Positions 8,130 through 11,234 of a stretch of 11,234 bases of DNA are shown one piece after another. A program made the position numbers and the translations under genes. The stretch is taken from UHGV virus genome UHGV-0140033; one strand, given 5' to 3'. Each line of letters begins with the position of its first letter. Within the stretch, counting starts at the first letter, position 1. Source of the stretch: a virus. The notes under the pieces were generated by a model, which searched no databases, was not told the origin of the DNA, and saw nothing but the letters and a program-made list of their open reading frames with translations.

Positions 8130-8408
8130 TCAGGCCTCAAAACTGTTGCAGCAGTCTTGAGGCTTTTCTTTTGTCAGCACCATGGCTACTTTCTTTGCCA
8201 GCTCTGCTAATTCCTCGTCTTCAACACCCCACTCCAGCACAGCCAGAAGCATGGCCATCTTTGGGATAAAGCTGTCTTTCCATCGCGAAATTTGCGATTC
8301 ATTAATCCCTAATGCATCAGCAACCTTTCGCTGACCACGTACAGCAATTCGATTCAGGATGTTGCTTGTAATTGCATTCGCTTTCTTGCGAGTACTTGTA
8401 AGTTGCAT
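8130..8408 (-). CDS. cII: CII-like transcriptional activator, 92 aa
   Basis: SQISRWK..FIPK.AMLLAVLEWGV matches the lambda CII core; upstream AAGGAAATACTTACATATG is identical to the lambda cII translation-initiation region as I recall it. The 121-aa track ORF is an upstream extension. Confidence 0.85.
   Translation of the reverse strand: MQLTSTRKKANAITSNILNRIAVRGQRKVADALGINESQISRWKDSFIPKMAMLLAVLEWGVEDEELAELAKKVAMVLTKEKPQDCCNSFEA
8386..8399 (+). promoter_or_regulatory. Candidate CII-binding site / pRE -35 region (TTGC-N6-TTGT)
   Basis: TTGCgagtacTTGT within the first cII codons on the opposite strand, resembling the lambda TTGC-N6-TTGC CII site; imperfect second half-site. Confidence 0.3.
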
Positions 8409-8465
8409 ATGTAAGTATTTCCTTAACAAATAAGAAGTTATGCGCATCAAATTATGCGCGTTGTA

Positions 8466-8510
8466 TTCCCGCATTTCGGCGGGAATGATGACCATGACTG
8501 TTAAAGAGCG
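8466..8510 (-). promoter_or_regulatory. nutR-like antitermination site: boxA (CGCTCTTTA, 8510-8502) and boxB hairpin (8485-8466)
   Basis: Minus strand reads CGCTCTTTAACAG immediately after the cro stop, then 13 nt, then a 7-bp stem TTCCCGC/GCGGGAA with purine-rich loop CGAAAT; same arrangement as lambda nutR. Confidence 0.55.
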
Positions 8511-8516
8511 GTGTTA

Positions 8517-8711
8517 CTATTTGTTTTTCTTGTTGCTTGGGAAAGGACGAACTTCCTCTCCAATCACACTGCCATCAGGCTTTACCGTAACCATGATGTT
8601 ACGGCCTGCCAGAATGGCCTTGCTGATAGCGCACTGGATTACACCAAAGTCACTGGCTGCTTTAGCCTGTCCATGGATTTTGGCGTAATCGGCAAGTGTC
8701 ATTCGAATCAT
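8517..8711 (-). CDS. cro: Cro-like repressor, 64 aa
   Basis: [15 protein letters not shown]...AGR.I...DGSV..EEV.PFPSNKK aligns with lambda Cro (about half identical by eye); ATG at 8711 with GGAG SD. The track start at 8717 is GTG. Confidence 0.85.
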
Positions 8712-8741
8712 ATGCACTCTCCGTTATTAACCATGAACAAA

Positions 8742-8806
8742 GAATACTACAGGTATTCAAAGCAATCAATACTCAGGGTATTTTTAGTTTAAGTACCTTA
8801 GCTATT
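8742..8806. promoter_or_regulatory. OR operator region: three operator sites (AATAC-N5-GTATT at 8743-8757 and 8768-8782; degenerate AGTAC-N5-CTATT at 8792-8806), containing the divergent pR/pRM promoters
   Basis: Palindromes read directly; centre-to-centre spacing 24-25 bp as in lambda OR1-3. Possible pR -10 TAGTAT (minus, 8749-8744) and pRM -10 TAGAAT (8806-8811). Confidence 0.7.
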
Positions 8807-8817
8807 AGAATTAAGCT

Positions 8818-9502
8818 ATGGAAAATAAAAAATCACTGACGACAGAACAGCTCGAAGACGCTAAGCGGCTTAAGGCTTTGTATGAGTCAAAAAAGAAAGA
8901 ATTGGGAATAACCCAATACTCAATCGCTGATGAACTGGGTATCACCCAAGGAGCGGTAGGGCATTATCTTAATGGCAGAAACGCGTTTGTTGCAAGTCTC
9001 AATTGCTGATTTTTGCCAGTCAATTGCTGCCAAGGTTGCAGAACAGGCAGAAAGCCTTAAGAGCGATGCCAACGTAAGGTATGCAGGGGAATACAGAGCA
9101 GGAAAGAGGTATCCGGTGTTAAGCAGTATCCAGGCTGGCTCGTGGTGTGAAGCATGCGAACCATACACCATTAAAGACATAGATGTTTGGCTTGAGTCTG
9201 ACGCGCATATTCAAGGTAATGCGTTCTGGCTTAAAGTGGAAGGTGATTCAATGACGGCACCGGTTGGGTTAAGCATTCCAGAGGGAACATTCGTTCTTTT
9301 CGATACCGGAAGGGAGGCGATCAACGGCAGCTTGGTCATAGCAAAACTTTCTGACTCTAACGAAGCAACATTCAAGAAGCTGATAATCGACGGCGGAAAT
9401 AAATACCTCAAGGGACTTAATCCTGCATGGCCTCTCGTGCCAATCAATGGAAACTGCAAGATTATAGGCGTTGCAATTGAGACAAAACTAAGGCTGGTTT
9501 GA
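8818..9502 (+). pseudogene. cI: cI-type repressor disrupted by a +1 frameshift: N-terminal HTH domain 8818-9009, C-terminal S24 LexA-like peptidase domain continues in another frame to 9502
   Basis: N-terminal [33 protein letters not shown] resembles the lambda cI N-terminus; C-terminal frame has AG..WLKVEGDSMTAP...ATFKKL S24 motifs. Frame changes between 8960 and 9009, most simply at the TTT run 8986-8988. Confidence 0.75.
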
Positions 9503-9519
9503 TCACGCAAGGGGCGATT

Positions 9520-9888
9520 ATGGTTGGAACCGCTATAGCAAGCTTTTTTGGGATGTTGGCAATCTCGACAATTTACGGCTTAGCGCATGCTTTTATTGCG
9601 AAATCTCTATCAGAAAAAATAAGCCAGGCTTGGGCGCATAGATCAGCTCGTTTCATGATTCTGGTGATCATAGCAATACAAGGGATATCTGCATTTATCC
9701 TCTATGGATCAAGCTTATACCTATTGTATCAAGGCGCGACATTTACGCCTTACACCAGTGATTACGGAACTCTATACGATGGTAGTGAAGACATCACTGT
9801 GGCTTGGATCGTCTTTGGTTTATCTATGGCCGTGTCTGTTGTAGCAGACATCATTAAGGTAATTCTCGTCTTAACCTTCGCTGACTAA
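9520..9888 (+). CDS. Uncharacterised integral membrane protein (122 aa, ~3 TM helices) cotranscribed downstream of cI in the rex slot
   Basis: ATG at 9520, 17 nt after the cI stop, with G-rich SD (track start 9499 is TTG); three long hydrophobic segments; no similarity to lambda RexB recognised. Confidence 0.65.
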   Translation: MVGTAIASFFGMLAISTIYGLAHAFIAKSLSEKISQAWAHRSARFMILVIIAIQGISAFILYGSSLYLLYQGATFTPYTSDYGTLYDGSEDITVAWIVFGLSMAVSVVADIIKVILVLTFAD

Positions 9889-9942
9889 CCTATAATCCCG
9901 GCAGCAATAGCTATCGGGATCCACTTCACATATCCCGCATAA

Positions 9943-10143
9943 AAAGCACTGAACAAGCAGACACCGAAACAAATAGAAGTCATGCGCTGTCTGGCGCAAG
10001 GCATGCCGAACAAAATGATCGCCTACAAAATGGGCATCAGCACATCAACCGTCAAAGTCCATCTGAACCGTATTTACATGCGTTTGAACATCACCAACCG
10101 ATTGCAGGCGTTGTTGTGGCTGAACGAACACAACATGTTCTGA
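9943..10143 (+). pseudogene. 3' fragment of a LuxR/NarL(FixJ)-family response regulator gene: C-terminal HTH domain only
   Basis: LNKQTPKQIEVMRCLAQGMPNKMIAYKMGISTSTVKVHLNRIYMRLNITNRLQALLW has the LuxR-type HTH signature and resembles the NarL C-terminus. In-frame TAA at 9940-9942 sits where the receiver domain should be. Confidence 0.55.
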
Positions 10144-10346
10144 CGCGTTTCGAAAAACCGTTCGACGTCGAATGGCTGTTCGATTCAGCCGTCGCGGACG
10201 AAGCGGAACAATACGTTTTCCACCCGAAACAAACATTGCGCAGAAATCCGGACGGATCGCTGACCGTCAAATTCCGCGCGGGCGGACGGCTGGAAATGGA
10301 TTGGCATCTGTACACTTGGGGAAAGCACGTCAAAGTCGTCAAAGCG
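10143..10346 (+). other. Possible gene fragment resembling the C-terminal (WCX-like) region of a WYL-domain transcriptional regulator; no start and no stop of its own
   Basis: Frame translation ...FHPKQTLRRNPDGSLTVKFRAGGRLEMDWHLYTWGKHVKVV resembles WYL-regulator C-termini (HP.Q...DGS...EL.W.L.WG..V.V). It runs directly into the antisense of rho. Confidence 0.25.
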
Positions 10347-11234
10347 TTACGAATTCATCGCTTCGAAAAAGTCGTGATTGTTTTTCGACTGTTTCAGCTT
10401 TTCCATCAGGAACTCCATCGCGTCGGCGGGTCCCATCGGCATCAGCACGCGGCGCAACACCCACATTTTAGGCAAAGTATTTTTATCCACCAACAATTCC
10501 TCATTACGCGTACCCGATTTTGTAATGTCGATAGCGGGGAAAATACGTTTATCAGAAACTTTGCGATCCAAAATAATTTCGCTGTTGCCTGTGCCTTTGA
10601 ACTCTTCGAAAATCACTTCGTCCATTCGAGAGCCCGTTTCAACCAAAGCCGTTGCGATAATTGTCAGCGAACCGCCCTCCTCTACATTACGAGCAGCACC
10701 AAAAAAGCGTTTAGGCTTTTGCAGAGCGTTGGCATCCACACCACCTGTTAACACTTTACCCGATGAAGGAATAACGGTGTTATAAGCACGAGCTAAACGC
10801 GTAATACTGTCCAGCAAAATCACAACGTCTTGCTTGTGTTCGACAAGGCGCTTAGCCTTTTCAATCACCATTTCAGCGACTTGAATATGGCGGCTTGCGG
10901 GCTCGTCAAACGTTGAAGAGATAACCTCACCTTGAATCGAGCGTTTCATATCCGTCACTTCCTCGGGGCGCTCATCAATCAACAAAACAATCAAGTGAAT
11001 CTCTGGGTGATTAGCTGTAATCGCGTGAGCGATGTTTTTCATCATGACGGTTTTACCTGTTCGTGGAGGCGCAACAATCATTCCGCGTTGACCTTTACCT
11101 TGCGGGCAAATCAAATCGATAATGCGGTCGGTTAAATCTTTGCCTTTTTCACCGCTTGGCAGCTCGTAATCCATCTTCAGCTTTTCATCTGGATACGTTG
11201 GCGTTAAGTTATCAAAGTTGACCCGATAGCGCAA
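10347..11234 (-). CDS. rho: Transcription termination factor Rho, C-terminal ~295 codons (5' end beyond the window)
   Basis: Walker [34 protein letters not shown], RecA-like ATPase domain ending ...[13 protein letters not shown] at 10347-10349. Clearly divergent from E. coli Rho as I recall it (roughly three-quarters identical by eye). Confidence 0.9.

Follow-up and report, generated by a model that had tools for sequence, protein, structure and literature searches.

The window analysed here, a stretch of 11,234 nucleotides from the virus genome UHGV-0140033, starts as Escherichia coli DNA and ends inside an alphaproteobacterial rho gene. Where exactly does one origin give way to the other, and was the join made in a cell, in a tube or by an assembler? 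A first-pass annotation of the letters had seen an abrupt junction at 9889-9942. The origin of the DNA does change nearby, but the true break is situated at 9975/9976, outside this interval. Native genomes show the window to be three gut organisms strung together: E. coli (1-9975), an alphaproteobacterium designated X (9964-10469) and a second alphaproteobacterium, Y (from 10458/10470). We consider it probable that these pieces were fused in silico into one inter-genome chimeric contig, and the source of the chimera is most likely a gut metagenome assembly or a contaminated E. coli library.

The E. coli part of the window

The left side of the window is a stack of insertion sequences followed by part of a lambdoid prophage. 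Its components are as follows.

1-72: part of the interior of an E. coli-type IS1; plasmid pCE0021a has the matching IS1B interior at 97% identity
71-1359, plus strand: left end of ISEc12 (IS21 family) with the 5' part of istA, 99.9% identical to the ISEc12 of L107
1360-2669, plus strand: IS3-family element, IS629/IS1203-like, with terminal inverted repeats, 98.1% identical to the copies in E. coli O145:H28 RM12581
2670-9963: early region of a lambdoid prophage (nin, replication genes, cII, cro, OR), 97-99.9% identical to E. coli prophages, mEpX2 and Stx-type phages
8743 and 8768: OR operators of the AATAC-N5-GTATT pattern
8786-9502, plus strand: cI-like repressor
9520-9888, plus strand: gene of a 122-aa membrane protein in the rex slot
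9889-9963: native prophage intergenic DNA with TATAAT, hairpin, GGATCC and TAA

The ISEc12/istA piece (71-1359) is interrupted by the IS element that follows it. In the E. coli records listed, the IS1 and ISEc12 pieces are not contiguous, and the IS3-family element at 1360-2669, which abuts the prophage, has neighbours that differ between its two sides. The stack at the left end could represent natural nested insertions or more repeat-mediated misjoins.

Phage mEpX2 and over 140 E. coli prophages have the 122-aa protein of the rex slot in conserved form. Pfam assigned it to no significant family; a Cation_ATPase_C match (E = 0.0035) was below the cut-off and was disregarded. This predicted membrane protein may be an uncharacterised exclusion gene.

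The E. coli character of the DNA left of the flagged interval, which the first-pass annotation had recognised, is clear: over 8400-9888 the identity to prophages of E. coli is 99.9% (501 genomes, with full cover in 146). The annotation was also right that OL, pL, N and int are missing, as confirmed by comparison with a native prophage and by the operator pattern search, and that AATAC-N5-GTATT does not recur beyond OR, since the search of the window returned just the two copies at 8743 and 8768. In the native locus of E. coli E2863, two such operators are located 46 and 71 bp past the position of the breakpoint, and small ORFs, cIII, kil, gam and bet lie beyond them. The absence of OL, pL and N from the window is thus explained by truncation of the prophage at 9975, 46 bp short of OL.

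The flagged interval and the first junction

All of the features that had been listed for 9889-9942 are present, namely the stop of the membrane-protein gene (9886-9888), TATAAT (9891-9896), the 6-bp stem (9895-9900/9915-9920), GGATCC (9917-9922) and the in-frame TAA (9940-9942). As marks of a junction, TATAAT, the hairpin and the BamHI site have lost their meaning, because all three are native phage sequence. A consensus promoter scan of 9400-10500 found no -35 partner for TATAAT, the scan of the same range called no terminator-like sites, and the hairpin is an unexceptional fold (z = -1.7); on these grounds TATAAT and the hairpin were discarded as junction features. The GC and skew profile, which had been suggested as a check, leaves the junction unmarked (GC 0.43-0.46 on the left and 0.47-0.49 on the right).

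The break was located by comparison with native prophages. With 9700-10150 as the query, 146 E. coli genomes match, and every match stops at base 276, which is window position 9975. Sixteen sequenced lambdoid phages (mEpX2, Stx-type) likewise stop at 9975, and E. coli identity amounts to 99.6-99.9%. Since the E. coli match runs unbroken to 9975 in 146/146 genomes and 16/16 phages, the interval 9889-9942 is native prophage intergenic DNA, and the position first proposed for the junction was wrong by 33-86 bp. When the right flank (9943-11234) was compared with 5,426 complete E. coli genomes, just its first 33 bases (9943-9975) occurred there. The exact match to 9943-9975 is present in only 4 of these 5,426 genomes.

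The break coincides with a short stretch common to both partners.

9964-9975: join 1, the 12-bp stretch CCGAAACAAATA common to the E. coli prophage and alphaproteobacterium X

The crossover at join 1 is bounded by 9963, which carries the E. coli base, and by 9976, which carries the X base. E. coli RM12581 is perfect through 9975 and the native X contig L100 is perfect from 9964, the two being alike at 15 of the 16 positions 9960-9975. E. coli prophages vary by a 1-bp indel inside this overlap (window 9970 versus ~3270 in L001), reading GAAACAAATA versus GAAA-AAATA. Reading by eye, we recognised no cloning site at the joint AAATA/GAAGTC, and no vector sequence was seen.

A separate BLAST of each flank gave the predicted split: the left flank is E. 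coli DNA, and the right flank is of non-enterobacterial origin. This result bears directly on three simple explanations: that the prophage ends at att, that a deletion from OL to int has left a scar, or that two DNAs were ligated at GGATCC during cloning. The missing OL, pL, N and int and a BamHI site close by are in their favour, but we give them next to no probability. The break interrupts the immunity region at a point past the rex-slot gene and short of OL, away from att; an integrase is lacking, and the next DNA is alphaproteobacterial and carries no E. coli host gene. After a deletion, the sequence joined on would be of phage or E. coli origin and not alphaproteobacterial. As to cloning, 54 bp separate GGATCC from the break to its right, and 146 E. 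coli prophages carry the site natively. These explanations are thus contradicted both by where the right flank comes from and by the phage nature of the BamHI site.

The piece from alphaproteobacterium X

The 506 bp at 9964-10469 are 100% identical to two independent native X contigs, L100 and L101 (58.7 kb); when this match is extended left to 9960, it acquires a single mismatch, at 9963. The X contigs were obtained in two ways: five, from metagenomes, via a conserved GerE string, and six long ones via Rho P0109. The six are mostly labelled as human stool assemblies (Hadza, Nepal). The X piece contains a GerE gene minus its first five codons, a WYL/WCX remnant and the last 40 rho codons.

9976-10143, plus strand: stand-alone GerE/LuxR-type HTH gene of X, Pfam GerE E = 1.5e-19 (9958-10143)
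10151-10346, plus strand: remnant of a WYL-WCX regulator, WCX part only, Pfam WCX E = 8.9e-6 (~10167-10340)
10347-10457, minus strand: X-type end of rho, last ~37 codons and stop, 100% identical to L100/L101 and ~58% to Y relatives

In native X the gene order is maf-aroE-coaE-dnaQ, secB, rho (forward), WYL-WCX (reverse), GerE (reverse) and LysR (forward). There a LysR gene precedes GerE, and rho runs on as X-type.

The GerE frame had been taken for a 3' fragment of a LuxR-type gene starting right after the TAA at 9940. It is in fact a nearly complete stand-alone GerE gene of 65 aa, lacking only codons 1-5. With the overlap included, the window contains codons 6-65, but neither the start, nor codons 1-5 (MTHHL), nor the region upstream of them. 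From TPKQIEV to the stop the product is identical to P0126 (65 aa), and the gene is 100% identical to L100 and L101 at the nucleotide level. P0126 was found on 137 contigs of up to 630 kb. Homologues of the frame are all small (53-72 aa); together with the identity to P0126, this rules out that the frame is the tail end of some larger LuxR-type regulator. A 3' fragment of a two-domain LuxR regulator was therefore rejected, the native gene having 65 aa and a GerE domain only (P0126, P0001). Between the TAA at 9940 and position 9963 the DNA belongs to E. coli and is open in the GerE frame by accident. The frame seems continuous back to this TAA because the CCGAAACAAATA overlap encodes the conserved P-K-Q-I of the GerE family. 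An exact look-up of the 53-aa ORF 9982-10143, beside join 1, returned nothing.

Upstream of WCX, which is a C-terminal extension found in WYL regulators, Pfam detects no WYL domain in the window. Between rho and GerE, the WYL-WCX locus of X has at least four alleles, including a different form in L102. The other forms are distributed as follows.

Full-length WYL gene (317-318 aa): L082, L098, L099, L104, L105
WYL gene with a 795-bp deletion: L096, L097, L103, L106
WYL gene with another 83 bp deleted, so that it abuts the rho stop: L100, L101 and the window

This allele series is gene decay caught within one species. The WCX remnant of the window is a native deletion allele of X and no artefact. 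Two extra joins, between GerE and WCX (~10150) and between WCX and the rho stop (~10345), had first been read from comparison with the full-WYL contig L082 and were rejected. The same deletions are present in native L096, L097, L100, L101, L103 and L106, so both boundaries are natural strain polymorphism.

The second junction and the hybrid rho

The right side had been regarded as a single foreign block. A second join between organisms is, however, located 500 bp further, inside rho.

10458-10469: join 2, the 12-bp exact overlap of X and Y rho, CACCCACATTTT
10470-11234, minus strand: rho of the second alphaproteobacterium Y, running off the window end, ~96% identical in nucleotides to L088-L095 (Rho P0004)

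Pfam places the Rho ATPase domain on the minus strand at 10347-11234. Join 2 sits within a 38-bp near-identical rho stretch (10432-10469), in which X and Y have a single difference, at 10457. L100 is perfect to 10469; all of the Y relatives (8/8) are perfect from 10458, have a mismatch at 10457 and then share 25 bp. From 10470 the identity to X drops to ~72-80%, and that to Y climbs from ~58% to ~96%, the value reached by the closest Y relatives. The encoded protein changes its affiliation in the same way.

Residues 1-255: 255/255 identical to Y (P0004), 215/255 to X (P0109)
Residues 256-267: the same in Y and X
Residues 268-295: 19/28 identical to Y (P0004), 28/28 to X (P0109)

The P0004 cluster (11 members) contains no hybrid Rho of this kind, nor do the best 120 Rho matches. 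The best match reaches 97%, and every difference from it is inside the X-derived tail. A genome scan seeded with the Rho fragment at the protein level led to Alphaproteobacteria, where the relatives did not exceed 81% among the matches listed and the parents were not among these. Native Y contigs have a 79-aa ORF, mnmE, rimP, nusA and infB after rho, all on the rho strand, and neither WYL nor GerE there.

The 90% Rho cluster of P0004 also includes the 53-aa P0142 (MLILVTYDVNTETEEGRKRL...), which has a Cas2-like look and is unrelated to Rho. Its presence there is probably a clustering or gene-call oddity of the collection.

Search for the arrangement in other genomes

The first-pass annotation had named a single reference with the whole contiguous arrangement as evidence against its junction; none was found in E. 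coli, phages, plasmids, GTDB, IMG/VR or JGI. The junction of E. coli and X is absent from 5,426 complete E. coli genomes, from phages and from plasmids, and the 34-base string of join 1 has no exact match in 185,579 GTDB species representatives, IMG/VR or the JGI metagenomes. The phage and plasmid collections contain nothing close to the right side, only ~70% rho homologues. Absence from public collections is weak evidence, since the source sample itself may be outside them.

These searches bear on the possibility of a real transfer, in which a lambdoid prophage of gut E. coli took alphaproteobacterial DNA beside its immunity region via 12-bp microhomology, the rho of the donor being a natural X/Y recombinant. 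The genomes of lambdoid phages are mosaics with foreign genes close to the rex slot, the partners share a habitat, and there is microhomology at the junction. We nevertheless hold such a transfer to be very improbable. It would require two rare events within 500 bp, and neither the 11 cluster members nor the best 120 matches mentioned above provide the X/Y hybrid Rho of its donor. The insert occurs in no E. coli genome, phage or plasmid searched. It would remove OL/pL, which is required for early leftward transcription of the phage, in exchange for captured genes that are non-functional (GerE without a start, rho convergent). No time would have elapsed since the supposed event, given that free-living X still matches the middle piece at 100% identity. 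If true, this would be a cross-class transfer so recent that the insert still equals its donor at 100%.

Overlaps at the joins and probable origin of the chimera

At both joins the overlap is exactly 12 bp, one mismatch stands just before it, and at that mismatch the window follows the left-hand partner. The chance of at least 12 identical bases at a random blunt join is P ~6e-8, which indicates that both joins depend on the overlap. Between 10 kb of E. coli DNA and the 11-kb X locus, ~13 shared 12-mers are expected and 14 were found; the overlap thus mirrors the joining rule, without biological specificity. So regular a pattern hints that the joining rule was algorithmic and that the smallest overlap it accepted was near 12.

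Short exact overlaps of 12 bp are also favoured by template switching, and the partners, all of them gut organisms, would mix in one tube. The window might in this case be an in vitro chimera, in which a polymerase switching templates during whole-genome or multiple-displacement amplification or library PCR joined the DNA of three organisms; what the assembler then reported would have been an actual, though artificial, molecule. This is rather unlikely in our estimate. It requires two switches 500 bp apart on the same molecule, and with a short-insert library it would mean two independent chimeric fragments with the same X piece. Amplification chimeras are often inverted, but strand and order are kept at both joins.

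Among the four origins that had been offered at the outset, the assembly join is therefore favoured, whereas the deletion or recombination scar, the transfer chimera and the cloning join are disfavoured. The segments have differing sources, their native continuations diverge, the breakpoints lie on shared sequence, and the junction is not reproduced in independent assemblies; these are the signs of misassembly. Inter-genome misassembly at conserved sequences common to several organisms is a documented and prevalent class of error (PMC9661791).

How could an assembler have produced the contig? At join 2, a textbook case of this error class, it would have passed from one species to a related one through a rho motif conserved in both. 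At join 1 the E. coli prophage path probably came to a dead end just before OL/pL and was closed onto an X fragment by a chance 12-bp overlap. This fragment would have been of low coverage and of read-pair size; the middle X piece is merely 482-506 bp long. Undisturbed, the E. coli path would have continued to AATATCCTTTGTATTC... (OL), and the X path would have read ...CATGACGCATCATCTGAC upstream and ...TTTTCGACAGCATATCC downstream. Common assemblers work at their main graph stage with k-mers longer than 12 bp, so an additional step would be needed for join 1, such as tip or gap closing, or else a chimeric read. Steps that close tips or gaps do exist in assemblers.

The arrangement is very probably no real biological feature, and its components are ordinary in their native genomes. 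With GerE cut at codon 6 and the prophage cut 46 bp before OL, the joined DNA forms no functional unit. It has no biological import and represents no new element; its value is in quality control. Left unsplit, the contig would mislead by presenting an E. coli phage with alphaproteobacterial genes, a hybrid Rho and a host link between a lambdoid phage and a gut alphaproteobacterium. Splitting the contig at 9975/9976 and 10469/10470 should precede any host-assignment, gene-transfer or binning analysis. A flank-by-flank search may catch one join yet overlook the second, 500 bp off.

Comparison with known systems

The components can be compared with their native counterparts. Up to 9975, and including the flagged interval, the left side of the window is like the lambdoid immunity region of mEpX2 and Stx-type phages (99.8% identity); in contrast to these, the window version ends 46 bp before the first OL operator. 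In gut Alphaproteobacteria, stand-alone GerE proteins are encoded beside WYL-WCX, and the frame of the window equals P0126 from residue 6 to the stop. Without a start codon and upstream region, however, the window copy is a truncated passenger.

The joints resemble those of microhomology-mediated or homology-facilitated illegitimate recombination, where short identical stretches lie exactly at novel joints. The event here differs in being double and non-functional, with an insert 100% identical to its donor and a joint known from the contig only.

The inter-genome translocation misassembly described for metaMIC (PMC9661791) likewise places segments of different organisms in one contig, with breakpoints on shared sequence. 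Join 1 departs from this class in that only 12 bp are shared, between the unrelated Gamma- and Alphaproteobacteria, and no conserved gene is involved. The likeness to the class lies in the breakpoint within the housekeeping gene rho of related species and in the native references, which diverge at each breakpoint.
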